Part shown: piece after piece, positions 5,527-61,313 of the stretch
How positions within the stretch are numbered: the stretch's first letter is position 1
How the letters are laid out: every line of letters begins with the position of its first letter
Position numbers and translations under genes: made by a program
Notes under the pieces: model-generated
What the model was told of the DNA's origin: nothing
What the model saw: the letters and a program-made list of their open reading frames with translations, nothing else
Database searches by the model: none
Assembly: GCA_028712565.1 (NCBI GenBank)
Contig: JAQTPW010000001.1
Location: 2,653 to 66,652, forward strand
Length of the DNA stretch: 64,000 bases
Reading direction: 5' to 3'
From: Minisyncoccota bacterium
GTDB taxonomy: Bacteria; Patescibacteriota; Minisyncoccia; Minisyncoccales; JAQTPW01

Positions 5527-6546
5527 ATGAATAATAAAATAATTAGAAGTATTTGTTATTTTGATAAAGAACCGTCAGACGAGACGATCGAAAGATTAGA
5601 TAAAATAGCGGGCATTCTCACGGGGAGGGGATTTGAAATTCAAACGAAAAGAGTTTGTTCGTCATCTGTTGATAAAATAATTGAACTTGACTCAAAATAT
5701 GCCAGTAATAGTTATATTTTCGGCATCGGATCTTTGCAGAAAGACGAAATACGTCGACGATTTAACGATGTGCTCTCCTGCAAGGACACTTCATTCAATC
5801 TGGATTTAACCGGGAGGGAGATTACAATTGACGACGCACAATTACTTTTCGAAATCATCAGAAGGAATTCCAGCAAGACATTTAATTTTACTTACGTATT
5901 TAATAACCGGCCTTCGAGCCCTTTCTTTCCTTCGGGATCATATCAAAAGGACGGATTTTCAATCGGTCTGCAGCCAACGGATTTATCCGAAGATTGCAAT
6001 TCAATTGGAGAATGGCTCGAGAAGATGAAGGAAGTGTGGCTGGAAATTTATAATTTATTCAAAGACGATCCCGAATTTTTAGGCATTGATTCGTCGATAG
6101 CTCCGCTCTTTTCGGGGAAAAGCAGCTTGATTGGTTTTATAAAAAAATTAGGGTTGGATTTCTCGCGCTCGGCGACAACGGATACTTATCTCGCCATAAC
6201 TAAATTTTTAAAAGAAAATAACCCAAAACCGGTTGGTTTGTGCGGATTAATGTTTCCTTGCCTTGAGGATTTCGAGCTGGCCGAAGAATATGAAAAAGGT
6301 AATTTTTCAATAGAACGCAATGTTTTCCTTTCTTTGCATTCGGGTTTGGGCATAGATACATATCCCATTGCTATTGATGAAAAACCGGAAAGGGTATTGG
6401 AAATTTTGAAATTAGTGCAAGGATTATCGGATAAATATAAAAAGCCGCTGTCTGCGCGTTTCGTTTCAGATGGCAAGGCTAAAATTGGCGAAAAAACTGA
6501 TTTCCAAAATCAATATTTAAAAGACATTACAGTTAGATCTCTATAA
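5527..6546 (+). CDS. Hypothetical protein (possibly UPF0210/DUF711-like)
   Basis: 339-aa uninterrupted ORF. Only a weak remembered resemblance (..GLCGLMFPCLEDFELA..). Confidence 0.4.
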   Translation: MNNKIIRSICYFDKEPSDETIERLDKIAGILTGRGFEIQTKRVCSSSVDKIIELDSKYASNSYIFGIGSLQKDEIRRRFNDVLSCKDTSFNLDLTGREITIDDAQLLFEIIRRNSSKTFNFTYVFNNRPSSPFFPSGSYQKDGFSIGLQPTDLSEDCNSIGEWLEKMKEVWLEIYNLFKDDPEFLGIDSSIAPLFSGKSSLIGFIKKLGLDFSRSATTDTYLAITKFLKENNPKPVGLCGLMFPCLEDFELAEEYEKGNFSIERNVFLSLHSGLGIDTYPIAIDEKPERVLEILKLVQGLSDKYKKPLSARFVSDGKAKIGEKTDFQNQYLKDITVRSL

Positions 6547-37314: not shown

Positions 37315-37736
37315 AAATTACACTTTGCGGGAGCGTAAAATTTGCCAAAAATATAGTTGAAATTTATCGCCAACTTGAAAAGTTAGGGCACACGCCTATG
37401 ATGCATGAAAAAATGTTTGGGATAGCTGATGGTACAGCCAAAGAAATAATTGATGGTATTGCCAAAGACCACGCAAAGTTAAAAAGGCAGGAAGGATTTA
37501 TCAAGTGGTGGTATAACTGCATTAAAAGTGGTGATGCAATTTTGGTTTGTAATTTTGATAAAAACGGAATCAAAAATTATATTGGCGGGAATACTTTAAT
37601 GGAAATCGGGTTTGCGCACGTAAATGATAAAAAAGTATTTTTATTAAATCCTATACCCAAAGATGTTTCTTATACGGCTGAAATAGAAGCGATGACTGAT
37701 GTTATTCTAAATGGAGACCTAAGCAAGATAAAATGA
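37311..37736 (+). CDS. Nucleoside 2-deoxyribosyltransferase/DNPH1-like protein (paralog 2)
   Basis: 141 aa. MKITLCGSV.. and ..NYIGGNTLMEIGFAHVNDKKVFLL... ATGA overlap with neighbours on both sides. Confidence 0.6.
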   Translation: MKITLCGSVKFAKNIVEIYRQLEKLGHTPMMHEKMFGIADGTAKEIIDGIAKDHAKLKRQEGFIKWWYNCIKSGDAILVCNFDKNGIKNYIGGNTLMEIGFAHVNDKKVFLLNPIPKDVSYTAEIEAMTDVILNGDLSKIK

Positions 37737-38314
37737 AAATAATTTTAGCAACAACATCGCCTTACCGAAAAGAAGCATTTGCTTTTTTGGGAATTCCGTT
37801 TGAAGCAGAAGGAAGCAAGGTTGACGAATCGCAAGTTAAAAGGAGAAATCCGGAAGATCTGGTGAAACAACTTTCAAAATTAAAAGCCGAAGCGGTGGCG
37901 AAAAATTACGCCGACGCAGTTGTCATTGGTCTGGATTCAGTGGGTTTTTTTGAAGGTAAAATTTTGGAAAAACCGAAATCGAAAGAAAAAGGATTTGAAA
38001 GATTAAAATCTCTATCAGGCAATAATTTTCAATTTTATACAGGAATTTATATGATTAATACGGCCGAAAATAGGTTTGTCGAAAATGTTGTGAAAACAGA
38101 TGCCTTTTTGAGAAATATTTCTGATGATGAAATTAATAAATACCTTTCCGAAGATCAGAATTATAACACTTACGCGCTTGGATTTGATCCTCTCTGCCAT
38201 TCCAGCTCGTCATTTATTCAAAAAATAGAAGGGAGTTACAATAATCTTTTGAGGGGCATTCCTTTGGAAGTTGTTCCTGAAATGTTGAGAGAGGCTGGCA
38301 ATAATAATTTCTAA
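37733..38314 (+). CDS. maf: Maf-like nucleoside-triphosphate pyrophosphatase
   Basis: 193 aa. IILATTSPYRKEAFAFLGIPFE.., ..DSVGFFEGKILEKP... Confidence 0.85.
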   Translation: MKIILATTSPYRKEAFAFLGIPFEAEGSKVDESQVKRRNPEDLVKQLSKLKAEAVAKNYADAVVIGLDSVGFFEGKILEKPKSKEKGFERLKSLSGNNFQFYTGIYMINTAENRFVENVVKTDAFLRNISDDEINKYLSEDQNYNTYALGFDPLCHSSSSFIQKIEGSYNNLLRGIPLEVVPEMLREAGNNNF

Positions 38315-38315
38315 T

Positions 38316-38663
38316 ATGATTTTTATTTATACTACGTGTAAAAATAAAAAAGAGGCGGAAAAAATCGGCTTGCATTTGGTTAAAAAACAACTGGTGGCGT
38401 GCGTGAATATTTTTCCCCTGATAAAATCTATTTTCAGTTGGCAGGGCAAAATTGAAAAAAAGAGCGAGTCGGTCTTAATTATCAAAACAAAAAAGGAAAA
38501 TTTTGCTAAAATTGAAAAAGACATTAAAAAAATAAGCGGTTTTACGACACCTTGTATCTTGGAAATTCCGATCGCGAGGGGAAACAAAGATTATTTAAAA
38601 TGGATAGAAAAAGAAGTTAAATGGAACGGGGTATTGACAACGGTTTTAAAAAAAGTAAAATAG
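38316..38663 (+). CDS. cutA: Divalent-cation tolerance protein CutA
   Basis: 115 aa. ..LVACVNIFPLIKSIFSWQGKIEKKSE... Confidence 0.85.
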   Translation: MIFIYTTCKNKKEAEKIGLHLVKKQLVACVNIFPLIKSIFSWQGKIEKKSESVLIIKTKKENFAKIEKDIKKISGFTTPCILEIPIARGNKDYLKWIEKEVKWNGVLTTVLKKVK

Positions 38664-38795
38664 AAAACGTAGAGAGATTTAATTAATAATATGGCAAAGA
38701 AAAAAGGAAAAAAAGGAGGCTGTTCTTGCTAAAGGATAGATAGTAAAATAAATTGGAGATTATAAATCAGGAAATCTCGTCCTGGTTTTTATTTG

Positions 38796-38908
38796 TCGCT
38801 TCTCGCTATTGTTCAGTAAAATATAATCCGAATATCATTCGAATCGCATCCGAATGCTTCGAATATTAATTAGGAGATTCGGATTATAGATCAATAGCGA
38901 GCAGCGAT
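38796..38908. repeat. Palindromic repeat E1 (TCCGAAT-rich), homologous to an insertion in 23S
   Basis: Arms TCGCTTCTCGCTATTG (38796-38811) / CAATAGCGAGCAGCGA (38893-38908). The interior (ATAATCCGAATATCAT.., ATCCGAATGCT.., AGATTCGGATT) matches 46333-46479. Confidence 0.85.
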
Positions 38909-38930
38909 GGGAAAGAACATTGTAAAATAA

Positions 38931-39056
38931 CCCCGTTAGAAATTTGCTTGTGGCTGATAAGATATACTAAATATTATTCTTTATTTAGTTTCAGTCTTGC
39001 TGGAAAAGATTGCTATCTTTTCCAGCCGGGAAAACATAGGCAAATTTCTAACGGGG
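38931..39056. repeat. Inverted-repeat element T1 (CCCCGTTAGAA family)
   Basis: Perfect 17-bp arms CCCCGTTAGAAATTTGC (38931-38947) / GCAAATTTCTAACGGGG (39040-39056). Inner 11-bp hairpin CTGGAAAAGAT/ATCTTTTCCAG. Confidence 0.9.
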
Positions 39057-39111
39057 TAAATAGCCATCATACTTAAGTTCCACTAAGTATCGGGTGGTCG
39101 TTAATTAGTTT

Positions 39112-39126
39112 TTTAGAGTTGTCCCG
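39112..39126 (+). other. 5' strand of the pre-16S processing stem
   Basis: TTTAGAGTTGTCCCG is the exact reverse complement of CGGGACAACTCTAAA at 41738-41752 (15 bp). This is an RNase III-type stem bracketing the 16S. Confidence 0.75.
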
Positions 39127-39159
39127 AATGTTCCGACATTGGTCGGAACGCGCGGATTG

Positions 39160-39250
39160 ACGCTGATACGAGTCGCTTCGGCGACTGTCGCTGATTAACG
39201 CTGATATTTTTCAGCGTAAATCTGCGTAGATATCTGCGTAAAATCTGCGT
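39160..39250. repeat. Short repeats ACGCTGATA x2 followed by inverted ATC(A/T)GCGTA units in the 16S leader
   Basis: ACGCTGATA at 39160-39168 and 39198-39206. TCAGCGTAA at 39211-39219. TCTGCGT(A) at 39221, 39233 and 39244. The same unit recurs in frame in a CDS at 59381-59418. Confidence 0.8.
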
Positions 39251-40620
39251 TTTTTTTGAGGATTTGATCCTGGTCCAGGATGAACGCTGGCGGCGTGGAT
39301 AAGGCATGCAAGTCGTGCGGCCTGAGTCGCAAGACGAAGGCAGCGGCAAACGGGTTAATAACACGTAGATTACCAACCCCAATCACGGGCATAATCCGCC
39401 GAAAGGCGGACTAATTCCCGATGGTCCGCGCGGGCGTAAGCTTTGCGCGGTAAAGACGTAAGTCGGAATGGGATGGGTCTGCGGCCCATCAGCTAGTTGG
39501 TGAGGTAAAGGCCCACCAAGGCGATGACGGGTAGGGGGGATGAGAGTCTATTCCCCAACAAGGACACTGCGACACGGGTCCTACTCCTACGGGAGGCAGC
39601 AGTCGAGGATATTCGGCAATGGGCGAAAGCCTGACCGAGCGACGCCGCGTGAACGAAGAAGGACTTCGGTCTGTAAAATTCTTTTCTAGGGGATGAACCC
39701 GCAAGGGTGACAGTACCCTAGGAATAAGGGGGTGCAAATTCTGTGCCAGCAGCCGCGGTAAGACAGAACCCCCAAGCGTTATCCGGATTTATTGGGCGTA
39801 AAGGGTCCGTAGGTGTCCCATCGCATCTTTTGTTAAACTTTCAAGGCTCAACCTTGGAAATGCGAAAGACATGGATGGGATTGAGGGCATTAAGGGCTGA
39901 TGGAACGGTCGGTGTAGGGGTGAAATCCGTTGATATCGATCGGAACACCAAAAGCGAAAGCATTCAGCTAGGGTGACCCTGACACTGAGGGACGAAAGCG
40001 TGGGGAGCAAAAAGGATTAGATACCCTTGTAGTCCACGCTGTAAACAATGAACACTAGCTATCTGAAGTGTCGACCCTTCGGGTGGCGAAGCCAACGCAT
40101 TAAGTGTTCCGCCTGGGAAGTACGATGGCAACATTAAAACTCAAAGGAATAGACGGGGACTCACACAAGCGGTGGATCATGTGGCTCAATTCGACAACAA
40201 ACGAGGAACCTTACCAGGACTTGAAAAGCTAGTGAAATCCGCCAGAAACGGCGGACTACCCACAAGGACACTAGCCCAGGTGCTGCATGGTTGTCGTCAG
40301 CTCGTACTCTGAAGCGTACGCTTAAGTGCGATAACGAGCGCAACCCTTATTGTTTGTTTTATTTGTCAAACGAAACCGCCCGCGATAAGCGGGAGGAAGG
40401 TAAGGATGACGCCAAATCAGCACGGCCCTTTGATGTCCTGGGCTGCACACATGATACAATGGGGCTGACAATGGGTTGCCAAGCCGTAAGGCGGAGCTAA
40501 TCCCATCAAACGGTCCCTCAATTCGGATTGAGGTCTGCAACTTGACCTCATGAAGCCGGAATCGCTAGTAATCGCCAATCAGCTATGTGGCGATGAATAT
40601 GTTCCTGAGTCTTGTACTCA

Positions 40621-41480
40621 CAATAAAAGCGCTCGGCAGTTTATTTTTCTATGCGGTTAAAATCCGCGCCTCTAGCCGTCCTAGAGAGTAGCCAAAGGAT
40701 AGTTTGTTACCGCGAGGTAATAAGCGAAGGATTCGGCGGCAAAAGACAGCCCGAACAAAAAAAGGCAAACCGACCCATCAATGAGCGGTGAGGATGGGGA
40801 AGGTCAAAGTAAAGCCTGTTTGGGATGCCCGGAAGAGAAAATTAAATAACCCGAGGAGATCTGACGTTGTTGCCATGAAAATTGCATGGTATAATGAACT
40901 TACGCAGCGTCAGAAGTCAGCTGAATCATAGTAACCTGAGTCCTAAATTTATAAAAGGACAAAGGAGAAGGATTCACTCTAGTAATTATGCTTAATCCTA
41001 ATTATATCGTAGGTTTAGTTGATGGAGAGGGAAGCTTTACGGTGTACGTAAGGCAACCTAATTCTGCCAAGAAAGTAAAACGAAGAGCGAGAGCGGAACC
41101 AAGATTTTATCTGAAACTTATAGAGAAAGATAAAGATATTCTCTATATGATCAAAAGATTCTTTTCTTGCGGAAGCGTTTATTTCCAGAAAGATAATCGT
41201 ATAAACCATCAAAATTGTTATCGATACGAAGTGGCAAACAGAAAAGATTTGGAAGAAATTATTATTCCTTTTTTCAAACGGCATCAACTGAAATTATTGT
41301 CGAAGAAAAAAGATTTCCGGATTTTCTGTGAATTAATGAGAAGAATTAAAAAAGGAGAACATCATACGAAATTAGGATTACGGCATTTATATCTTATAAA
41401 ACAAGGTATGCATTAGAGCTCGTCGCATGCGGGAAATCTGCAGGTGCGATGGGAACATCAACTCTAAGTTCGTAGAGGAT
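40621..41480 (+). mobile_element. Intron (probably group I) in 16S at the site equivalent to E. coli ~1395-1400
   Basis: Conserved ..CTTGTACTCAC stops at about 40621 and ..CTCGCCCGTCACGCC resumes at about 41482. The junction is ambiguous over a repeated ACTC (+/-6 nt). The insert carries a LAGLIDADG ORF. Confidence 0.8.
40988..41416 (+). CDS. LAGLIDADG homing endonuclease (single-motif, I-CreI-like)
   Basis: 142 aa. ..NYIVGLVDGEGSF.. motif, basic DNA-binding saddle. Located inside the 16S intron. Confidence 0.88.
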   Translation: MLNPNYIVGLVDGEGSFTVYVRQPNSAKKVKRRARAEPRFYLKLIEKDKDILYMIKRFFSCGSVYFQKDNRINHQNCYRYEVANRKDLEEIIIPFFKRHQLKLLSKKKDFRIFCELMRRIKKGEHHTKLGLRHLYLIKQGMH

Positions 41481-41804
41481 ACTCGCCCGTCACGCCAAGC
41501 GAGCTGGGAATAGCCAAAGTTCTCCGCAAGGAGACCTAAGCTGGGCTCAGTGAGAGGGGCGAAGTCGTAACAAGGCACGCGTAGGGGAACCTGCACGTGG
41601 ATAAATTATTTTTTTCTAGTATTTCTTAATGAGATACTAGAGTCGACTAAAGTTGAAGGGCGAAAATTTTCTCTTTAACTTTAAGGTGTTAATCTCTAAC
41701 CTAAAATAAAGATTCCTTGGTCTCGCGGAACGAGACCCGGGACAACTCTAAAGGACTAAATCGTGGAAACTAGTAACTGGTTTACTAGTAACTAGTAACA
41801 AACT

Positions 41805-41824: not shown

Positions 41825-41860
41825 GGTTTGATAGAAGTTCGGGTTTGGCGATATACCCGT

Positions 41861-41896
41861 ATATTATTAACATAGCTATCGCTTGGTTAGTAATAT
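41861..41896 (+). promoter_or_regulatory. Conserved hairpin/promoter-like motif, copy A (ATAGCTATCGC family)
   Basis: ATATTATTAAC-ATAGCTATCGCTTG-GTTAGTAATAT. Can also be read as TTAACA, 18 nt, TAATAT. Confidence 0.55.
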
Positions 41897-41902
41897 TCTG
41901 TA

Positions 41903-41999
41903 TTAGTTGGTAATTTTAATGTTTTGGTTTGGCGATTCGAAAGTAAGGTCCTAGCCAGTCCAAGGAGAGATTTCCAATTATTTCTCCTTTTTCTTTTTA
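41903..41999 (+). ncRNA. Candidate small RNA (about 95 nt) between motif A and a terminator
   Basis: Lies downstream of the -10-like TAATAT (41891-41896). Ends in a 9-bp hairpin AAGGAGAGA/TTTCTCCTT (41962-41989) followed by TTTTCTTTTT. No family recognised. Confidence 0.25.
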
Positions 42000-42091
42000 A
42001 TAATTTTTTAATCTTAAAATTATAAGCTATAAGTGGGTTCTATCTTTGCCCAGAGTCCGATTTTTATAACACTAAATCTCCTCCCTTTATC

Positions 42092-42124
42092 GGGGCGGGC
42101 GGCAAATCGCGCGCCGCCCGCCCC
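42092..42124. other. Extreme GC hairpin
   Basis: GGGGCGGGCGGC-AAATCGCGC-GCCGCCCGCCCC, a perfect 12-bp G/C stem in otherwise AT-rich DNA. Confidence 0.85.
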
Positions 42125-42236
42125 CAAAAGCCCTTTAAAAATTTATATGGTGGAGAAAAATTCGCAGTTCGGCCGTATACGATCAAAGAGCAGGTCTGTC
42201 CGAAAGAACCATTACCTAATAAGGATAAATAGTTCC

Positions 42237-42287
42237 GCTATAGCTCAGCGAATCCGCGGAAACTCTAGTTAACCGCGGCTCCACCGA
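42237..42287 (+). pseudogene. tRNA-Ala-like relic (internally deleted)
   Basis: GCTATAGCTCAGC ... CCGCGGCTCCACC resembles the 5' (GGGGCTATAGCTCAGC) and 3' (..GCTCCACCA) ends of bacterial tRNA-Ala. The middle is replaced by a CCGCGG-N13-CCGCGG hairpin. Confidence 0.35.
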
Positions 42288-42300
42288 CCCGAAAATCGTA

Positions 42301-42335
42301 AGCCAGATGAATCAATCTTCGATTCCTGGCTTTTG
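42301..42335 (+). terminator. Rho-independent terminator
   Basis: AGCCAG..GAATC..GATTC..CTGGCT followed by TTTTGTGTTTTT. Confidence 0.6.
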
Positions 42336-42400
42336 TGTTTTTAGAGATAAATTATCGCAAAAATTTTTCCATTTTTTTTGCTACAATATCTGTAGCACCA

Positions 42401-42437
42401 TATATTATTAATATAGCTATCGCCTAGATAATAATAT
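42401..42437 (+). promoter_or_regulatory. Conserved hairpin/promoter-like motif, copy B
   Basis: TATATTATTAAT-ATAGCTATCGCCTAG-ATAATAATAT. Confidence 0.55.
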
Positions 42438-42614
42438 TTGATATTTACTGATTAAAATTAGTGATGTTTTATTGTAGCTTGTTTTTTTAATTATTTTTTG
42501 TTAAAATCTTAAATTGAAAGTTAAATTTTCTATATGCCCCGCAGTAGAATTTTGAACCCTACGGAGGCGTATAAAATTTTTTCTAAATTTTAATTCAAAA
42601 TTCACTGACAGGGT

Positions 42615-43305: not shown

Positions 43306-43456
43306 ATGCTTAATTGATTTTCATAAGCGAGAAAACGGGGGCGTGTAGCTCAGTTGGTTAGAGCACGTCACTGATAATGACGGGGTCAGAGGTTCGAGTC
43401 CTCTCATGCCCACTCTCGCTTATGAAAATCAATTATCCGACGAGCGTAGTGAGGAG
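43306..43456 (+). other. Intervening sequence: 22-bp perfect helix capped by a whole tRNA gene
   Basis: TAATTGATTTTCATAAGCGAGA (43311-43332) is the exact reverse complement of 43414-43435. tRNA-Ile (43339-43412) sits between the two arms. Confidence 0.85.
43339..43412 (+). tRNA. tRNA-Ile (anticodon GAU)
   Basis: Acceptor GGGCGTG/CATGCCC, D stem GCTC/GAGC, anticodon stem CGTCA/TGACG with loop CT-GAT-AA, T arm AGAGG-TTCGAGT-CCTCT, discriminator A. No CCA. Confidence 0.9.
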
Positions 43457-43503
43457 ATCATAATGACGAGGTCAATGGTTCGAGTCCATTATCGCCCACA
43501 AAG

Positions 43504-43575
43504 GGGCCTGTAGTTCAGTGGTAGAACACCCGGTTTGCATCCGGGAGATCGGGAGTCCAAATCTCCCCGGGTCCA
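43504..43575 (+). tRNA. tRNA-Ala (anticodon UGC)
   Basis: Acceptor GGGCCTG/CGGGTCC with G3:U70, D stem GTTC/GAAC, anticodon stem CCCGG/CCGGG with loop TT-TGC-AT, T arm GGGAG-TCCAAAT-CTCCC (unusual C55). Confidence 0.8.
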
Positions 43576-43613
43576 CCGAGTCAAACTCGGTTTGACCGAG
43601 TCAAACTCGGTTT
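43576..43613 (+). terminator. Two tandem identical terminator hairpins
   Basis: CCGAGT-CAA-ACTCGG-TTT repeated at 43576-43593 and 43596-43613. Confidence 0.7.
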
Positions 43614-45781: not shown

Positions 45782-46332
45782 ATTAGCAGGATTATATATG
45801 AATATAAAAACAAAAACTATAAACAAAGAGAGCGGCTAATTTGCTGTTTTTCGCGCGTGATTGAAGCCGCTTCTCCAAAGCGGTTTTTGTTTTTTCAGTA
45901 GAGCAACTTCGACAAAAGTTTTTAAAGAAAACTTTTAAATCTTAAAAAGAGTCGAAGATGTCTTGCTGGATTTTTCCGAACGGTAAGAACTTTAAAAATT
46001 TATCAGTAAATATTAGGGTCTACAATTAATTAAATTATTTAAAACGATTATTAATTGCTAGCCAAGATGGTAAATTAAGGGCGTATGGTGGATGCCTTGG
46101 GAGATTGAGGCGATGAAGGACGCGGCGTGACTGCGATAAGCCTCGGGTAGGTGTCTAGCAACCTCTAATCCGGGGATTTCCGAATGGGGAAACCCAATTC
46201 CATTTTATGGAATTGCCCTGAGAGCAATCGAAGGGCGCATACCCGCTGAAGCGAAACATCCCAGTAAGCGGAGGAAAAGAAAAAAACTTTTTATTTCCTG
46301 AGTAGCGGCGAGCGAAAAGGAAACAGTCCAAA

Positions 46333-46479
46333 CTTATTACTCCTCACTATTGTTCGGAGCAAAATAATCCGAATATCATCCGAATCTTATCCGAATGCTA
46401 CGAATTTAATTTGCAGATTCGGATTTCATTCGTAGATTCGTATTATTTTTAGCGACGAGCAGCAGCGAGGAGTAATGAG
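46333..46479 (+). repeat. Insertion E2 in 23S domain I, homologous to intergenic repeat E1
   Basis: 24-bp imperfect stem CTTATTACTCCTCACTATTGTTCG / CGACGAGCAGCAGCGAGGAGTAATGAG. The interior aligns with 38805-38890. Confidence 0.85.
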
Positions 46480-46731
46480 GGTTGCAAGGAAATGTCGTCG
46501 GGAGCACCCCTCACGTTGAATTAAATTAATGTGAGGGGTTAACCCGAGGGAGAATATTTAGATAAAGTTTTGCTAGTTAAATGCCCCTGGAACGGGCAAC
46601 CATAGAAGGTAATAGTCCTGTAAACGAAAACAACTTTATGCTCCTTGATGTTTTTCTTAAGTACCACGGGAAAAGAAAGTCCTGTGGGAAACAGGCCCAA
46701 CTATAAGGGCCAAGACTAAATACTCAATCTC

Positions 46732-46770
<39 letters not shown>

Positions 46771-46828
46771 CAGGGAGGTGATCCCGGTGAAATAGAAACT
46801 GAAACCATATGCTCACAAAAAGTTCGAG

Positions 46829-46979
46829 CCCCGTTACAATTTTGCTCCTGACATGGCGAGCGAAGCGCGAGTGGCGAATAGCCACATCCTTTTATGGGCG
46901 CAGCGCTTCGCCCAGCAAGGGTGCACCTATTCGGTGCGCGCGCTGCGCAAAATAATTCAGAGGCAAAATTGTAACGGGG
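46829..46979 (+). repeat. Intervening sequence T3 replacing the tip of 23S helix 25 (CCCCGTTA family arms)
   Basis: Perfect 17-bp arms CCCCGTTACAATTTTGC / GCAAAATTGTAACGGGG around a GC-rich core. Flanked by ..GTTCGAG and TGAGAGCGTAC.., which correspond to E. coli ..GTGGGAGC[H25]GTGACTGCGTACC. Confidence 0.85.
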
Positions 46980-49125
46980 TGAGAGCGTACTTTTTGGAGA
47001 ACGAGCCAACGAGTTTCTTCACGCTTTTTGTCTAAGCCCCTATGGGGCGGAGGCGTAGTGAAAGCAAGCGTTAATAGCGCAAAAAAATAAAGCGTGGGGA
47101 AGACCCGAAGCCAAGCGAGCTTGCCATGATCAGGGCGAACTCTGGAGAAATCTGGAGGGAGGCCCGAACCTATGAGCCGTGCAATACTCTGGGACGAATT
47201 GTGGCAAGAAGAGAAAACCTAAACGAGCTTGGTAATAGCTGGTTCTCCCCGAAACAGCTTTGGGGCTAATGGCAGGTAAAAACTTTTGGAGGTAGAGCAC
47301 TAAATGGATAACCGTGGACTTCGTCCAGGTAATCCAATTAAACTCCGAATACCAGAAGTCTATTTCCTGCTAGCAAGACCGTGGGGGCTAAGCTTCACGG
47401 TCAAAAGGGAAGCAGCCCAGATCTTCATCTAAGGTCCCTAAACTGAGCTAAGTGTTATTAAGGAAGTGGAGTTCCTTTGATAGTTAGGAGGTTTGCTTAG
47501 AAGCAGTAACCCTTTAAAAAGTGCGTAACAGCTTACTAACTAAGGAATTCTGCGCTAAAGATTTAGGGGCTAAGCTCAGTACCGAAGATAAGAATGAACA
47601 TGCAATTTATTGCGTGTTCGTGGTAGGGGAGCGTCCTGCTCGCAGCGAAGATAAATCGTAAGATTTGTTGGAGTGAGCAGGAGTGAAAATGTTGGCATGA
47701 GTAACCGCAATGCAGGTGAAATCCCTGCACACCGAAAACCTAAAGTTTCCTTGGCAACGACAATCGGCCAAGGGTTAGGCGGTCCTTAGCTGAACCCGAA
47801 AGGGGCAAGTGATGGACAGCCGGTTAATATTCCGGCCCTCTGGCCTATTTTTTAGGAAGTGACGAAATTTAGTAACTCGGGCTAATTATGGATTTTAGTT
47901 TTTGCCTTAAGATTTTTCAAAAGGCAAGAAAATGTTCCCCCTCGGGGGGATAAATCCGAGCGAGCAAGTTTCCCAGAAAAACTTCCAAGAGTTAAATAGG
48001 CCGGATCCGTACCAAAACCGACACAGGTAGGTTGGTGTGAATACACTAAGGTGAACGGGCGAAGCCTCGTTAAGGAACTCGGCAAAAAAGTGTTCGTACG
48101 TTCGCAATAAGAACTTCCCGAACCCGCAAGGGTGAGGGACGCAGCGAAAGTTTTCCAGGCGACTGTTTATCAAAAACACAGGTCCCTGCTCAACTCGCAA
48201 GAGGATGTATAGGGGCTGAAGTCTGACCAGCGCTGGAATGTTAAAGGTGAGGGTTGCTTCCGCAAGGGAGTAGCTCATTGCACTAAGCTTCCAGTCAGCG
48301 TCCGCCGTAACTATAACGGTGTTAAAGTAGCGTATCCCCTTGTCAGGTAAGTTCTGACCCGCATGAAAGACTTCACGACTTGGAAACTGTCTCAACGAGG
48401 AGCTCGGTGAAAACACAATACCGGTAAAGATGCCGGTTACCTGCGGCTAGACGGAAAGACCCCGGGAGCTTTACTGTAACTAGATATTGAATTTTGGTTT
48501 TGGATGCGTAGCGTAGAGGTGAGGATTTGAGGCCGCGATCTCGGTTGCGGCTGATCCGACAATGAAACAGCCTTCTTTCGAAACCACAGTTCTAACCCCC
48601 ATTAAATTGGGGAGACAGTGTCTGGCGGTCAGTTTAAGTGGGGCACTTGCCTCCTAAAATGTAATGGAGGCGTTTAAAGGTCGGCTAACTCCGGATGGAA
48701 ATCGGAGTGGTCGTGCAAAGGCATAAGCCGGCTTTACTGCAAGAACTATATTTCGCGCAGTTGGGAAACCAGAACTTAGTGAACCGACGGATTCTCATAG
48801 AAAATCCGAAGATCATCAACCAAAAGTTACCCCGGGGATAACAGGCTAGTAGGACCCGCGAGTCCATATCAACGGTCCTGTTCGGCACCTCGATGTCGGC
48901 TCTCCGCATCCTGGAGGTGAAGTCGCTTCCAAGGGTCTGACTGTTCGCCAGTTAAAGCGGAACGTGAGCTGGGTTCAGTACGTCGTAAGACAGTACGGTC
49001 CCTATCTACCGTAGGCGTTGAATCTTGAGGGGACTTGGGAATAGTACGAGAGGACTTTCCTGAACTGACCTCTGGTGTACCAGCTGTTCTGCCAAGAGCA
49101 TTGCTGGGTAGCTATGTCGGGAACT

Positions 49126-49156
<31 letters not shown>

Positions 49157-49373
49157 AAACCCCAAGATTAGGATTCATAGATTCCAGAGAGACCATCTGG
49201 TCGATAGACTGCCGGTGTAAGCTCCGTAAGGGGTTAAGCCAAGCAGCACTAATAAATCATTACACAAATCTTGACTAGCAATTAATGATCATTGGAAAAT
49301 AATTTAACTAATATTTTAAACCTTAGCGAAAGGCGGCGCGTCAAACGTGCCAGGCCTCGTGAGAGGGCGCTGA

Positions 49374-49487
49374 GGTGGCGGTTATACTGGCATTGTCCCA
49401 CCTGTTCCCATTCCGAACACAGAAGTGAAATATGCCAAGGCCGATGATAGTATCCTTTTGGATGCGAAAGTAGGAAGCTGCCACCTT
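49374..49487 (+). rRNA. rrf: 5S rRNA
   Basis: GGTGGCGGTTATAC...CCCACCTGTTCCCATTCCGAACACAGAAGTGAAA...GTAGGAAGCTGCCACC. The terminal helix closes correctly. Confidence 0.9.
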
Positions 49488-52609: not shown

Positions 52610-52675
52610 ATTTAAAGTAGACGTATTCCCCCTTAATTTTTATTAGATCGAATATAATAATATTTTGTAAAATGC

Positions 52676-52715
52676 GTATATTACTAACATAGCTATCGCC
52701 AAGATAGTAATATAT
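52676..52715 (+). promoter_or_regulatory. Conserved hairpin/promoter-like motif, copy C
   Basis: GTATATTACTAAC-ATAGCTATCGCCAAGA-TAGTAATATAT. Abuts or overlaps ATG 52714 of the PaaX-like gene. Confidence 0.6.
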
Positions 52716-53304
52716 GATATACGAAAGTATGAGTAAATATAAATATTATTTTAGAAAACCAAGATCGGAAATTATAAAAGATTTTTTAAACACGCTACTA
52801 GTTGCGGGCACCATTACGATTGCCGCTTCTTCTCCTTATTTTATTGTTAATTTATTAAAAGCCAATAAAAGTTTTAGGCGGTATCCAAAGCCGAGGATTG
52901 CCGATACTTTCGCGCGTTTGAAAAGGGAAGGATTAGTAGAAACCGTACGGCGTAATGGACAAATTTATATAAAACTTACTGATAAGGGAGAAAAGAAAGC
53001 CGGTTTTTACCAAATTAATAGTTTGAAAATAAAAAAACCGAAAAAATGGGATGATAAATGGAGAATTGTTATTTTTGATATTTCTGAGCTAAAAAGAAGC
53101 CACCGGGAAGCTTTTCGAGGAAAATTAAAGGAATTAGGATTTAAATCTCTTCAAAAAAGCGTTTGGGTGCATCCTTTCCAATGTAAAGATGAGATAGCGC
53201 TCCTGCGTGATTTTTTCGGTTTGGAAAAAAATGATATTCGCATAATAGTTGCCGAAGAAATCGAAAATAGCGCCGATTTAAAGAAATATTTTCTTCTTAA
53301 TTAA
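52714..53304 (+). CDS. PaaX-like regulator: TM segment + winged helix + PaaX/Cas2-fold domain (paralog 1)
   Basis: 196 aa. ..FARLKREGLVETVRRNGQIYIKLTDKG.. (wHTH) and ..WDDKWRIVIFDISELKRSHREAFRGKLKELGFKSLQKSVWVHP... The start may be ATG 52729. Confidence 0.65.
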   Translation: MIYESMSKYKYYFRKPRSEIIKDFLNTLLVAGTITIAASSPYFIVNLLKANKSFRRYPKPRIADTFARLKREGLVETVRRNGQIYIKLTDKGEKKAGFYQINSLKIKKPKKWDDKWRIVIFDISELKRSHREAFRGKLKELGFKSLQKSVWVHPFQCKDEIALLRDFFGLEKNDIRIIVAEEIENSADLKKYFLLN

Positions 53305-53335
53305 CACATACGGTTAATTAACTACAAAATAACAA

Positions 53336-53375
53336 AATATTGTTAACATAGCTATCGCCTTGTTAATAATATATT
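53336..53375 (+). promoter_or_regulatory. Conserved hairpin/promoter-like motif, copy D
   Basis: AAATATTGTTAAC-ATAGCTATCGCC-TTGTTAATAATATATT. Confidence 0.55.
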
Positions 53376-53416
53376 GTTTTGTTGTTTGTTAATACTAGAT
53401 ATTGGATATATTGAAT

Positions 53417-59266: not shown

Positions 59267-60739
59267 ATGTTTTGTCAATATTTAAACCCAAAACCAATAT
59301 CGATTTCTTTGTCTCCTAATACTGAAAAGGATGATATCCTATTGGCTTTTAAGTTGCTTTGGAAACCTTGGCGATGGAAATTCAGCGTAAATCAGCGTAA
59401 CAATCAGCGTCAATCAGCTTCTACGATTTTAGAAGAGGAATTTAAAAAATATTTGGGAGTAAAATATGCCATATCATTTAACAGCGGGAGGTCGGCGTTG
59501 ATGGCAATATTGGCTGCTCTTTTCGGAGAGCAGGCATCCTCCGAAGCCTTGGCGAAGGAGGATGAGGAGGTTCTTTTACAAGCCTTCACTTGTAACGCAG
59601 TTCCAAATCCGGTTATTTGGTCCCGCCTTCGCGAGGCCGAAGCTCGCTACGGCGAGGCAAAGGCCCGCCTTCGCGAGGCCGAAGCTCGCTACGGCGAGGC
59701 AAAGGCCCGCCTTCGCGATGACGCTTCGGCGAGGCAAGCAGGCTTGAAACCTATTTATGTAGATTGCAACGAAAATACATTTAACATTGATCCAGAAGAT
59801 TTAAGGCGTAAGATTACGTCAAACAGCCGCGCCGTAATAGTCCAGCACACTTTCGGTTTGCCCGCAGAAATGGATGAAATTATAAAAATTTGTCAGGCAC
59901 ATAATTTAATATTAATTGAAGATTGCGCGCATTCTTTAGGTGCTACCTATAAAGGAAAAAAGATCGGAACCTTCGGCAGAGTTTCATTTTTCAGTTTTTC
60001 CAGAGATAAAGTAATTTCTTCAGTTTACGGCGGAATGGTAGTTACTTCTGATGATGAACTTGCAAAAAAAATTAAGGAATACCAGGAAAGAATCGGTTAT
60101 CCTTCATATTTTTGGATTCTTCAGCAATTATTGCACCCTGTATTAATGAATTGGCTTATTTTGCCAACATATAAATATTTTGGAAAATATTTATTGATTT
60201 TATTCCAATGGCTTCACATTTTTTCAAAAGCCGTCCATTGGAAGGAAAAGAGGGGGCAAAAACCCTGTTATTTTCCAAAGCGTTTACCAGATGCCTTGGC
60301 AATTTTGGCTCAAAACCAATTTCGGAAATTGGAAAAATTCAACCGGCATCGCCGGGAAATCGCCGAATTTTATAATCGCGAATTAGCCGATACCAGCTAC
60401 CAGCTACCAGTTACCAGCGACGGCGACATTTTCCTTCGTTATGCAATAAAACATCCGAACGCTCATCAAATTATTCAGAAGGCATGGAGTCATAATCTAT
60501 TGGTTGGGGATTGGTATACAACGCCGATTGCTCCGCATGATACTAAATTAGAAAAAATGCAATATACTTTAGGGAGTTGCCCAAATGCGGAAAAATTGGC
60601 AAAAATTACATTAAATTTGCCGACTCATATTAATATTTCGGTGAAAGATGCCCAAAAAATCGTAGACTTTTTAAAAAAAATAAGTAAAAACAATAAAGAC
60701 CATAATACGATTTCCACGGCCGTAGAAAAAGTATTATAA
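59267..60739 (+). CDS. DegT/DnrJ/EryC1/StrS-family PLP aminotransferase carrying several in-frame repeat insertions
   Basis: 490 aa, against my recollection that this family is usually about 370-400 aa. ..ISFNSGRSALMAIL.., ..LIEDCAHSLGATYKGKKIG.., ..FFSFSRDKVIS.. (PLP Lys context). Confidence 0.85.
   Translation: MFCQYLNPKPISISLSPNTEKDDILLAFKLLWKPWRWKFSVNQRNNQRQSASTILEEEFKKYLGVKYAISFNSGRSALMAILAALFGEQASSEALAKEDEEVLLQAFTCNAVPNPVIWSRLREAEARYGEAKARLREAEARYGEAKARLRDDASARQAGLKPIYVDCNENTFNIDPEDLRRKITSNSRAVIVQHTFGLPAEMDEIIKICQAHNLILIEDCAHSLGATYKGKKIGTFGRVSFFSFSRDKVISSVYGGMVVTSDDELAKKIKEYQERIGYPSYFWILQQLLHPVLMNWLILPTYKYFGKYLLILFQWLHIFSKAVHWKEKRGQKPCYFPKRLPDALAILAQNQFRKLEKFNRHRREIAEFYNRELADTSYQLPVTSDGDIFLRYAIKHPNAHQIIQKAWSHNLLVGDWYTTPIAPHDTKLEKMQYTLGSCPNAEKLAKITLNLPTHINISVKDAQKIVDFLKKISKNNKDHNTISTAVEKVL
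59381..59418 (+). repeat. In-frame short tandem repeat (A)ATCAGCGTAA
   Basis: TTCAGCGTAAATCAGCGTAACAATCAGCGTCAATCAGC encodes FSVNQRNNQRQS. Same unit as in the 16S leader (39211-39250). Confidence 0.8.
59525..59570 (+). repeat. In-frame GC-rich palindromic insert
   Basis: CCTCCGAAGCCTTGGCGAAGGAGG folds as CCTCC/GGAGG plus GCC/GGC. Encodes ..ASSEALAKEDE.. between conserved AILAAL and EVLLQAFTC. Confidence 0.65.
59622..59742 (+). repeat. In-frame 42-bp GC-rich tandem repeat (2 full units plus a diverged third)
   Basis: CCCGCCTTCGCGAGGCCGAAGCTCGCTACGGCGAGGCAAAGG at 59622-59663 and 59664-59705, with a diverged copy to about 59742. Encodes RLREAEARYGEAKA x2. Confidence 0.9.
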
Positions 60740-60740
60740 T
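60705..60740. repeat. Left copy of 33-bp direct repeat (3' end of the DegT-family gene)
   Basis: TACGATTTCCACGGCCGTAGAAAAAGTATTATA (60708-60740) versus 61281-61313, one mismatch. Contains the palindrome ACGGCCGT. Confidence 0.9.
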
Positions 60741-60749
60741 TAAATAAAT

Positions 60750-61280
60750 ATGAAATTTCCAGTTACCGATAGATTTTTATGGGATTTATATGATTTTCTT
60801 GAAAAGGCAGGTGATATTTATGATGTTTTTTTGGCACGACCCTGGAAAGAAGTTTGGTCTCCGGAACTTCACAAATTTAGATATGAATGGAAGAAAAAGA
60901 AGGATCGAAAATTATTCAGTCGGCTTGTTTATTATTTAAAAAAGAAAGGGTATATAAAGACTAAAAATTTAGAGGAAAAAGAAGCTGTTTTGTTAACAAG
61001 GAAAGGAGCCGATAAGATTTTGAAATTGAAACTTAAAGAAAGTAATAAAAAGAAAAGACCAGACGGAAAGTGGCAAATGGTAATTTTTGATATCCCCGAA
61101 AGAAAGCGTTTTTTAAGAGATTTACTTAGAGAAAATCTTTATCTTTTAGGCTATCAACTGTTGCAACAAAGTATTTGGGTTTGTCCATATGATGTTTCAT
61201 ATAAAACAGAAATAATTCTCAATAAATATTCCCTTGATCAATACGTAAAAACATTTTTAATTAAAGAAATAGAAGTATAG
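60750..61280 (+). CDS. PaaX-like regulator with wHTH + PaaX/Cas2-fold domain (paralog 2)
   Basis: 176 aa. ..LVYYLKKKGYIKTKNLEEKEAVLLTRKG.. and ..PDGKWQMVIFDIPERKRFLRDLLRENLYLLGYQLLQQSIWVCP... Confidence 0.65.
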   Translation: MKFPVTDRFLWDLYDFLEKAGDIYDVFLARPWKEVWSPELHKFRYEWKKKKDRKLFSRLVYYLKKKGYIKTKNLEEKEAVLLTRKGADKILKLKLKESNKKKRPDGKWQMVIFDIPERKRFLRDLLRENLYLLGYQLLQQSIWVCPYDVSYKTEIILNKYSLDQYVKTFLIKEIEV

Positions 61281-61313
61281 TACGATTTCCACGGCCGTAG
61301 AAAATGTATTATA
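61281..61313. repeat. Right copy of the 33-bp direct repeat
   Basis: TACGATTTCCACGGCCGTAGAAAATGTATTATA, starting immediately after the stop of the PaaX-like gene. Confidence 0.9.

Follow-up and report, generated by a model that had tools for sequence, protein, structure and literature searches.

Where does an extra hairpin inside a ribosomal RNA (rRNA) come from, and what becomes of it? The question is raised by the 23S rRNA gene in a 64-kb stretch of a Minisyncoccota bacterium contig (JAQTPW010000001.1; "the window" means this whole stretch), in which the region 46333-46479 has 131 nt where the Rfam model LSU_rRNA_bacteria (RF02541) has 6. Aligning the gene to RF02541, a check that the preliminary description of the locus had proposed, places the excess at the tip of a small hairpin at model positions ~274-295, directly 3' of GAGCGAAAAGGAAACAGUCCAAAC. 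The inserted element proper is 133 nt long (46340-46472), and it has a sister copy, E1, in the leader of the 16S gene. To the reading that these 133 nt are a non-autonomous derivative of a selfish GxxExxY nuclease cassette, similar in kind to a miniature inverted-repeat transposable element (MITE), and that the derivative was inserted in the apical loop at the position of helix 15 (H15) and expansion segment 5 (ES5), we assign a probability of about 0.75. The insert and its native borders divide as follows, with E1 and fetched loci (L numbers) as the points of comparison.

46333-46339, + strand: native 5' strand of the helix-15-position hairpin (CUUAUUA), aligned to the hairpin stem of RF02541; its counterpart in L188 is CTTAATAT-loop-ATATTAAG
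46340-46360, + strand: left arm of the outer stem, CTCCTCACTATTGTTCGGAGC, homologous to arms of E1, L190, L185, L148, L173, L157 and L145
46361-46394, + strand: 5' terminal arm of the GxxExxY cassette, three ATCCGAAT units with an 11-nt period, matching in register the sequence upstream of intact genes
46395-46409, + strand: remnant of the nuclease open reading frame (ORF), ATG CTA CGA ATT TAA (MLRI and stop); compare the intact-cassette starts ATG-CCG/CTG-CGA-ATA
46410-46450, + strand: last ORF codons and 3' terminal arm (TTTGCAG ATTCGGA..ATTCGTAGATTCGTATTAT), aligning with the stop and downstream arm of intact cassettes
46451-46472, + strand: right arm of the outer stem, AGCGACGAGCAGCAGCGAGGAG, which pairs with 46340-46360 and matches the right arms of L190, L185 and L148
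46473-46479, + strand: native 3' strand of the helix-15-position hairpin (UAAUGAG), by the Rfam alignment

The native helix strands on either side of the insert are perfectly complementary. The hairpin that bears it stands between the H14 strand GUCCAAAC and the H16 strand GGGUUG, and judged by this order of helices it is the hairpin of the helix-15 / ES5 position. E. coli 23S has no helix at that position; the window's GUCCAAAC corresponds to E. coli GCCCAGAGCC at 266-275, and E. coli 23S tolerates insertions at 261-275 (GCCCAGAGCC, H13/H14/H16), at sites that have been mapped to H14/H16 and to eukaryotic ES5 (Yokoyama and Suzuki, PMC2441807). Given this tolerance in E. coli, the window insert occupies a proven tolerant surface site.

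A 147-nt segment closed by a 24-bp imperfect stem had been described here, and the stem does span 24 positions, with 22 pairs in runs of 13, 2 and 7, two A.C mismatches, and three G-U pairs among the 22. The 147 nt fold at -59.7 to -61.5 kcal/mol, compared with -31.9 +/- 3.4 for shuffles (z -8.8), and the insert RNA is predicted to form a near-continuous helix of ~57 bp, including the 22-bp closing stem, coaxial with helix 15. Two other expansions are present in the same 23S gene, a hairpin of ~150 nt at helix 25, the classical site of intervening sequences (46829-46979; 63-nt arms, 71% complementary), and an enlarged tip in the H18 region (46498-46547); both are unrelated to the E1 family.

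The block-by-block correspondence between the interior of the insert and E1 that the preliminary description had pointed out holds over 73 ungapped nucleotides at 81% identity. The local alignment scores 104, compared with 18.2 +/- 2.9 in 2000 dinucleotide shuffles (maximum 34), giving z = 29 in the shuffling test on which the earlier claim had been made to depend, and the pair is the best off-diagonal match of the window on either strand. Both copies are built from TCCGAAT / ATTCGGA units, as had been noted; the spacing of the TCCGAAT units is 11 nt, and the pattern TCCGAATNNNNTYCGAATNNNNTCCGAAT is found at these two places only in the window, where the expected number is 0. No third copy was found within the 64-kb window by self-comparison, pattern scan or homology search.

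An artefact would be one way to dismiss this relationship, either as a mis-assembly that joined repeat copies or as slippage of a helix in place that came to resemble E1. Contigs in the Logan assembly of run SRR22315508 match 37574-39280, including E1, at 100% identity, and they break at the conserved starts of rRNA genes (for 23S at 46100), so that an independent assembly covers E1 but not the 23S copy; the insert is moreover internally repetitive. Against this, the two copies differ at 19% of positions plus indels, so that collapsed or swapped reads are not the source, the insert lies between perfectly complementary native strands at a known tolerant site, z = 29 rules out chance, and the same phenomenon recurs in locus L185 (below), all of which makes an artefact scarcely credible.

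The GxxExxY cassette and its gene-less relatives

In locus L098, from the metagenome-assembled genome (MAG) CAYIJR01, a 129-aa PDDEXK_3 / GxxExxY ORF (PF13366, E 2e-24; TIGR04256, E 8e-23) lies exactly between two arms of the kind found in the window hairpins. Homologues of its protein at 60-85% identity carry the source names Nealsonbacteria, Pacebacteria, Portnoybacteria and Parcubacteria among several groups of the candidate phyla radiation (CPR), and all four further contexts that were read (L201, L205, L206, L208) have the gene fitted tightly between co-oriented host genes. The cassette arms are inverted, ~40 nt long, and made of (A)TCCGAAT / ATTCGGA(T) units with an 11-nt period. At the 5' side the gene-bearing loci read ATAATCCGAAT..ACGAAT..ATCCGA-ATG-CCG-CGA-ATA, with the start codon and codons 2-4 of the nuclease inside the last arm unit, while on the 3' side the stop codon is followed by the arm ATTCGGA..ATTCGGATTATATTT and, a few bases on, by the ATG of the next gene. 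Intact cassettes begin ATG-CCG/CTG-CGA-ATA (MPRI or MLRI), the family consensus N-terminus is MxRIN, and since the last arm unit encodes the start and codons 2-4, this conserved N-terminus is encoded by the arm.

The two arms of the window insert each match their own cassette flank, in the right order, with z values of 9-14. The 5' arm agrees with L208 at 30/35 positions with identical spacers (z 13.9) and with L098 at 36/46 (z 11.2), and the 3' arm agrees with L201 at 39/49 (z 11.9) and with L098 at 40/49 (z 13.2), the last match including the final codons TTAATTCGTAG / TTAATTTGCAG. The start codons are retained as well, as ATG CTA CGA ATT TAA in the 23S copy and ATG CTT CGA ATA in E1, both giving the MLRI found in L205. 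As in MITEs, terminal inverted repeats are common to the short form and its gene-bearing parents (L098, L201, L205, L206, L208). Because the ATG, codons 2-4 and the last codons are retained between arms that are in register, the window hairpins are, on this sequence anatomy, internal-deletion derivatives of the GxxExxY cassette. An intact cassette, of a type common in CPR/Patescibacteria, would have lost nearly its whole ORF, the two arms that were left would have snapped together as a hairpin, and the gene-less hairpin would then have multiplied in its own right.

The nuclease is modelled by AlphaFold (pLDDT 89) with a PD-(D/E)xK fold, and its best structural matches in the PDB are Cas4 SSO0001, lambda exonuclease and Hjc resolvases. 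By sequence no relative was found in the PDB, the viral contigs searched held no GxxExxY relatives, and a literature search returned nothing on the GxxExxY family as a mobile cassette or in rRNA.

Gene-less homologues were sought by scanning species-representative genomes with the three-unit pattern TCCGAAT(N4)x3, followed by blastn and nhmmer. The pattern gave more than 117 hits, mostly unrelated 11-nt tandem arrays in many phyla, and homology beyond the units was confined to CPR hits; that the left-arm units are invariant among these hits is due in part to the pattern having selected for them. Homologues of ~95-105 nt are present on at least nine contigs of CAYIJR01 (labelled Saccharibacteria), in JACZRI01 (Patescibacteria), in JBDRNK01 (Uhrbacteria, 2 copies) and in MFRX01 (Moranbacteria), so the suggestion that one hairpin element occurs both in an rRNA helix and outside mature rRNA is supported, at least four other CPR genomes having copies between protein genes and relatives having them in rRNA leaders. 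As with MITEs, a single genome has the element at several unrelated loci (two in the window, at least nine CAYIJR01 contigs). One deletion junction, CGAATTAAAAACGYCGTATTCGGAGC, is common to five different CAYIJR01 loci, from which it follows that the gene-less form itself has multiplied. Separately, tandem TCCGAAT+4 arrays occur in many other phyla, and the Bacteroidales MAG JAWOCF01 (L002, L005, L046, L053, L071, L078, L097) has at least nine near-perfect palindromes around GGTCATGACC, with four to six 11-nt GTCCGAATTNN units per arm; the phylum is unrelated, and unit and period are those of the CPR arms.

The six copies with both neighbours resolved (CAYIJR01, JACZRI01) each occupy the whole gap between co-directional genes (rpmI-rplT, rplP-rpmC, holB-frr, x-rpsU and pgk-recJ), with the upstream stop codon at the left end and ...TTAGGATTATATTT followed by the next ATG at the right. 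Two other explanations were weighed. In one, the hairpin family is primary, for example as a regulatory or processing hairpin, the GxxExxY genes are passengers that repeatedly inserted in its loop, and the window copies never bore a gene. The copies do stand at a fixed distance from downstream starts and supply an AGGA Shine-Dalgarno-like motif, gene-less copies outnumber gene-bearing ones by about 9 to 1 in CAYIJR01, and other hairpins that share the outer stem of the window copies (L185, L148, L173) have periodic cores without an ATG remnant. In all five gene-bearing loci, however, the last arm unit supplies the codons for MxRIN and the stop region lies within the 3' arm, so that arms and ORF form one unit, and both ends of the ORF (the start with codons 2-4, and the last codons) survive in the gene-less copies, which deletion accounts for and insertion into a loop does not; we consider it unlikely that the hairpin came first. 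In the other explanation, the likeness is functional, and the hairpin would bind a ribosomal or assembly protein that recognizes both the 23S expansion and hairpins in leaders and mRNAs, as an autoregulatory mimicry. Several intergenic copies precede translation genes (rplT, rpmC, rpsU, frr), there are copies in rRNA leaders adjoining the boxA antitermination signal, and the 11-nt period of the units equals one turn of A-form RNA. Yet other copies precede recJ, the MscS-like gene, pilus genes and def, the element is in the 23S of the window lineage only, the mRNA copies coming from other genomes whose 23S genes are not in the data, and a protein-binding role leaves the anatomy of the ORF remnant unaccounted for, making such mimicry very improbable. 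Derivation from the nuclease cassette is the reading that we carry forward.

The 16S leader copy, the outer stem and the relatives

E1 and the leader elements around it are arranged as follows.

38796-38907 (to 38908 in the preliminary description), + strand: E1, the sister copy in the 16S leader, by homology to the 23S insert
38796-38816 and 38890-38907, + strand: outer arms of E1
38817-38853, + strand: cassette 5' arm of E1
38854-38889, + strand: ORF remnant and truncated 3' arm of E1 (ATG CTT CGA ATA ...)
38634-38661, + strand: predicted 16S-operon promoter TTGACA-16-TAAAAT, with 11/12 consensus matches, upstream of E1
38768-38790, + strand: terminator-like hairpin and T-run immediately 5' of E1, kept in relatives
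38915-38927, + strand: boxA-like antitermination box GAACATTGTAAAA, 7 nt 3' of E1

E1 had been placed in non-rRNA DNA about 450 bp upstream of the 16S, with 16-bp arms of its own. The distance stands (~345-450 nt) and so do the arms, which have 16 positions with 15 pairs and one mismatch (fold -46.9 kcal/mol, z -6.2), but the location has to be revised, as E1 is inside the 16S leader transcript. The box GAACATTGTAAAA is the local version of GAACTTTGAAAA / GTTCTTTGAAAA, which is conserved before both 16S and 23S in most related loci examined, and which we take to be the rrn boxA from boxA consensus sequences. The order of promoter, tiny ORF, hairpin and boxA is conserved in relatives; the leaders of L166, L170 and L171 are collinear in all four parts and have no hairpin at the E1 point, and the leader of L152 has unrelated hairpins there. 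With a promoter upstream, boxA downstream and collinear relatives that lack the hairpin, both window copies lie in rRNA primary transcripts, and E1 is, on this predicted leader anatomy, a lineage-specific insertion in the transcribed 16S leader. A conserved boxB-boxA antitermination hairpin was also considered for E1 and is ruled out by its absence from relatives with the same leader, and Rfam 15, searched with E values up to 10, gave nothing credible for E1, its surroundings or the intergenic copy in L104.

Several other features of this leader are worth recording. The tiny conserved ORF, MAKKKGKKGGCSC followed by a stop, lies at 38691-38732 between the promoter and the terminator-like hairpin and is also present in L166, L170/L171 and L152. 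A second hairpin of periodic units at 39159-39257 (ACGCTGAT / ATCTGCGT units, with an internal UUCG hairpin and a T-run at its end) abuts the 5' end of the 16S, and its units are similar to the core seen in the L185 element. Following boxA there is a long inverted repeat, AACCCCGTTAGAAATTTGC ... GCAAATTTCTAACGGGGT (38929-38947 / 39040-39057), and related CCCGTTAGAAA hairpins stand beside promoters in L121 and L182, which looks like another dispersed hairpin family.

The relatives compared here are 80 metagenome loci retrieved with the protein with MscS-type transmembrane (TM) helices just upstream of the 23S, the synteny of gene and 23S being kept, and helix-15 lengths were counted by anchored extraction from 45 related 23S 5' domains. 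The helix-15 hairpin is 45 nt or shorter in 36 of the 45 (for example, CTTAATAT-TTAT-ATATTAAG in L188), other long hairpins are present in nine (seven distinct sequences), and the window insert is found in none. A lineage-wide conserved 23S expansion without extra-ribosomal copies, the finding that would have spoken against a mobile origin, is therefore not what is seen. Between L168 and L164/L166 the entire helix 15 is replaced and the rest is near-identical, and between relatives at 80-87% flank identity the content of the insert turns over completely. Sites are thus seen both filled and empty, at the E1 point (empty in L166/L170/L171), in 23S leaders and at helix 15 (short in 36). In L152 the helix-15 insert (5711-5870) interleaves (N)CGAAT / ATTCG units with UUCG-loop hairpins; it falls below the nhmmer threshold and may be a more decayed remnant of the same cassette family.

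Copies of the core element are found in the 5' untranslated region of the MscS-like gene (L137, L139, L140, L131, L155, L120), and in L190 the core, with outer arms of the window type, immediately precedes boxA in the 23S leader; the 23S leaders of other relatives, such as L152 and L151, are without the hairpin seen in L190 and L185. The outer arms were followed on their own with blastn-short. They read CTCCTCACT..CGTTCGGAGC and GCGACGAGC.G.AGCGAGGAG, with a wobble-related version GCTTCGCTATTGCTCAG, and they surround different periodic cores in L173 (helix 15) and L157 (H18 region), stand empty at helix 15 (L197) and in a small hairpin near model positions 225-236 (L145), and occur upstream of a protein-gene promoter in L148. 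By sequence the outer stem is therefore a separable module, and the element is a composite of a conserved outer stem and an inner core. Locus L185 has the outer stem with a different core, once 5' of boxA in the 23S leader and once inside the 23S at another hairpin, the two copies having one base different in ~60; as far as sequence can tell, L185 is an independent repeat of the pairing of leader and 23S. A further observation on these 23S leaders is a layout conserved upstream of the 23S (45800-46064 in the window, and in the leaders of most of the ~45 relatives), with a promoter, a 13-14-codon ORF ending ..SG and a stop, then CCGCTTC ... GAAGCGG with a T-run, and boxA; the stop codon of the small ORF lies inside GAAGCGGTTAA, and this three-strand, attenuator-like arrangement may couple rRNA transcription to translation of the leader peptide.

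How the composite came to be in two places can be put only as a proposal. In the window lineage the remnant would have come to sit in the second, conserved 20-24-bp outer stem, and of the two resulting composites, one in the 16S leader 5' of boxA and one at 23S helix 15, both in rRNA primary transcripts, one would have seeded the other. Transposition may have made the copy, or gene conversion may have acted on two outer-stem hairpins that existed beforehand, the latter being conceivable because outer-stem hairpins are found at helix 15 and in the leaders of relatives, and mobility might be supplied by the nuclease or by whatever moves the outer stem. Within the ribosome, only insertions in the apical loops of peripheral helices would survive.

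A number of observations weigh against the cassette reading as a whole. The outer stem is unexplained and is perhaps a separate element, and it may be the outer stem, rather than the cassette, that mediated the last copying step. Only two copies of the element lie in the 64-kb window, and a tblastn search of the window and of every fetched locus, with the nuclease as query, found L098 alone, with no GxxExxY gene in the window. A Pfam scan confined to 30 ORFs of the window found neither a transposase nor an RNase III gene. No convincing target-site duplication or defined insertion target was seen for the core copies or those in the 16S/23S leaders; TA flanks many core copies and is possibly part of the repeat, and the boundaries of the outer stem show no consistent duplication. 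At least one copy, in L010, is antisense to its flanking genes, and the second copy in L185, the one in the 23S, runs into a contig end. RNAalifold on 13 family members predicted only 10 pairs and no useful covariation, the repeated units making the register ambiguous, so that this result is not counted against pairing, and the intergenic copies have mixed sense and antisense folding energies, with no consistent bias at the RNA level.

Fate of the insert in the 23S rRNA

By analogy with classical 23S intervening sequences (IVS), the insert RNA is probably cut out by RNase III, which would leave a fragmented 23S. We lean towards excision on three counts: the closing stem is long, the content of the insert turns over rapidly, and Brown et al. 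(2015), as cited in PMC11270868, reported that transcripts lack the CPR rRNA insertions examined so far. The alternative has the same origin for the element, with the hairpin kept in the mature 23S as an expansion segment that would lengthen helix 15 by ~57 bp at the solvent surface. Mycobacterial ribosomes keep an enlarged H15, and long hairpins stand at helix 15 in many relatives of the window lineage. E. coli ribosomes accept insertions exactly here, at the site of eukaryotic ES5 (PMC2441807). The sense strand of the 23S copy also folds more stably than its antisense strand (-59.7 versus -54.4 kcal/mol) and uses G-U pairs, as expected under selection for RNA structure, and the sense strand is favoured for the rRNA-associated composites (window 23S, L190); the folding energies do not separate selection at the RNA level from selection at the DNA level. 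On the other side, a 22-bp closing stem on a helix of ~57 bp is a textbook RNase III substrate, the complete change of content between L168 and L164/L166 fits a dispensable, excised spacer better, and retention would run counter to the transcript report of Brown et al. as relayed in PMC11270868. We regard a retained hairpin as quite possible, while doubting it.

Surroundings, known systems and meaning

The window has a GC content of ~37% and nearly all of its genes on one strand. Its rRNA region contains the following features.

39252 (start): 16S
40652-41560: 16S insertion, with a LAGLIDADG_1 ORF at 40988-41416
43339-43577: tRNA-Ile and tRNA-Ala
46065-49273: 23S, by alignment to Rfam LSU_rRNA_bacteria (RF02541)
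49374-49486: 5S

Between the 16S and the 23S are genes for a YbaK-like editing domain, a SWIB protein and the protein with MscS-type TM helices. The 16S is split by the insertion of ~900 nt near position 1400 (the Rfam hit ends at 40651 and the 1492 site is at 41562), which has a single-domain LAGLIDADG_1 endonuclease gene and matches no Rfam intron model above the gathering threshold; a LAGLIDADG insertion near 16S 1400 is typical for CPR bacteria (PMC11270868). Together with the low GC, the names of the relatives and their groundwater-type metagenome sources, the 16S insertion marks the window as CPR/Patescibacteria-like. Between tRNA-Ile and tRNA-Ala, at 43460-43499, the 3' half of tRNA-Ile is repeated at 80% identity, where ARAGORN calls no tRNA. 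Two PaaX_M (Cas2-like domain) genes (52714-53304 and 60750-61280) each stand between direct copies of 37-48-nt palindromic repeats, and a small ORF (42033-42272) is likewise bracketed by palindromic repeats, giving all three a cassette-like look; the bracketed units span 52674-53380, 60702-61313 and 41857-42445. Finally, a 21-nt tandem array with CCCGCCTTCGCGAGGCCGAAG and CTCGCTACGGCGAGGCAAAGG in alternation (59622-59705) is found within ORF 59267-60739.

Bacterial 23S genes with hairpin insertions were recognized decades ago. The IVS at helix 25/45 of Salmonella, Yersinia and Campylobacter, and their ORF-bearing counterparts in Leptospira and Coxiella (S23p / 23S_rRNA_IVP), are likewise extra hairpins at the tip of a surface helix, and the window insert shares with them the helix-tip excess (131 versus 6), a long closing stem (22 bp plus two mismatches) and a sporadic, patchy presence among relatives. 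Some IVS have a small ORF in the loop and others none, as in the GxxExxY element family, and horizontal spread of IVS has been proposed (PMC11270868, PMC4990558). The window insert differs in lying at the helix-15 position and not at a classical site (helix 9, 25 or 45), in having a GxxExxY / PDDEXK_3 gene family in place of the four-helix-bundle IVS protein, and in its clear homologues outside rRNA (in a leader, and in gaps separating protein genes); RNase III excision would carry over from IVS by analogy.

The Correia elements of Neisseria (CREE/NEMIS) and the enterobacterial ERIC sequences resemble the window element as palindromes of ~100-150 nt dispersed beside genes. Transcribed along with their neighbours, whose expression they can influence, they form long RNA hairpins on which RNase III acts. 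For Correia elements the target duplications are TA and no parental gene is known, whereas the window family has no recognizable duplication, a parental nuclease cassette, and copies inside rRNA. The Rickettsia palindromic elements (RPE) and the small dispersed repeats of cyanobacteria survive in essential genes, including structural RNA genes, at tolerant surface positions. They belong to a different sequence family and host clade, and we know of no description in which one of them forms a helix-tip rRNA insertion with a matching copy in a leader.

The homing endonuclease genes (HEG) of CPR rRNA introns and the free-standing HEG of phages are, like the GxxExxY cassette, small nuclease genes that behave as selfish inserts, with ORF-containing and ORF-less versions in both kinds of system; the window 16S has a LAGLIDADG insertion of its own, and the GxxExxY cassettes lie precisely between host genes in the manner of free-standing phage HEG. 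The window element, in contrast to HEG introns, has no Rfam intron match at the gathering threshold, and its family has a predicted nuclease of PD-(D/E)xK type, long periodic inverted arms, and a gene-less form that multiplies like a MITE. ES5L and the engineered E. coli insertions at 261-275 mark the same place in the secondary structure, the ES5 / helix-15 site of the window insert, and show extra RNA to be tolerated there (PMC2441807), though these are retained RNAs of unrelated sequence, and the window insert would be of mobile-element origin and may or may not be retained. Taken together, the insert resembles classical 23S IVS and transcribed MITEs, and is set apart by its site, its extra-ribosomal homologues, its parental cassette and its nested outer stem.

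More than 80% of CPR 23S genes carry insertions, among which short ones without an ORF or intron character are common, uncharacterized, and suspected to be RNase III intervening sequences (PMC11270868). One such insert is now tied by sequence to a sister copy in a leader, to dispersed intergenic hairpins and to a parental nuclease cassette, which gives an origin to one class of these insertions. A broader proposal, tentative and a little short of an even chance in our estimation, is that a new class of selfish cassettes, which have inverted arms of periodic units and insert exactly between host genes, has its nuclease encoded by GxxExxY (PDDEXK_3) genes, that the gene-less hairpins of these cassettes, alone or within an outer stem, are a major source of the short insertions in CPR rRNAs and leaders, and that donor-recipient pairs of leader and 23S are visible in at least two lineages. 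If true, the intervening sequences and expansion segments of bacterial rRNA would have a concrete origin open to test, with the CPR as the clade in which the question can be put to the test, and GxxExxY / PDDEXK_3, a family of obscure function so far, would gain a first functional context as a proposed selfish mobile nuclease. The coincidence of the tolerant E. coli site, eukaryotic ES5 and the site of the window insert supports the view that the places of expansion are set by tolerance and that their content can be supplied by mobile DNA.

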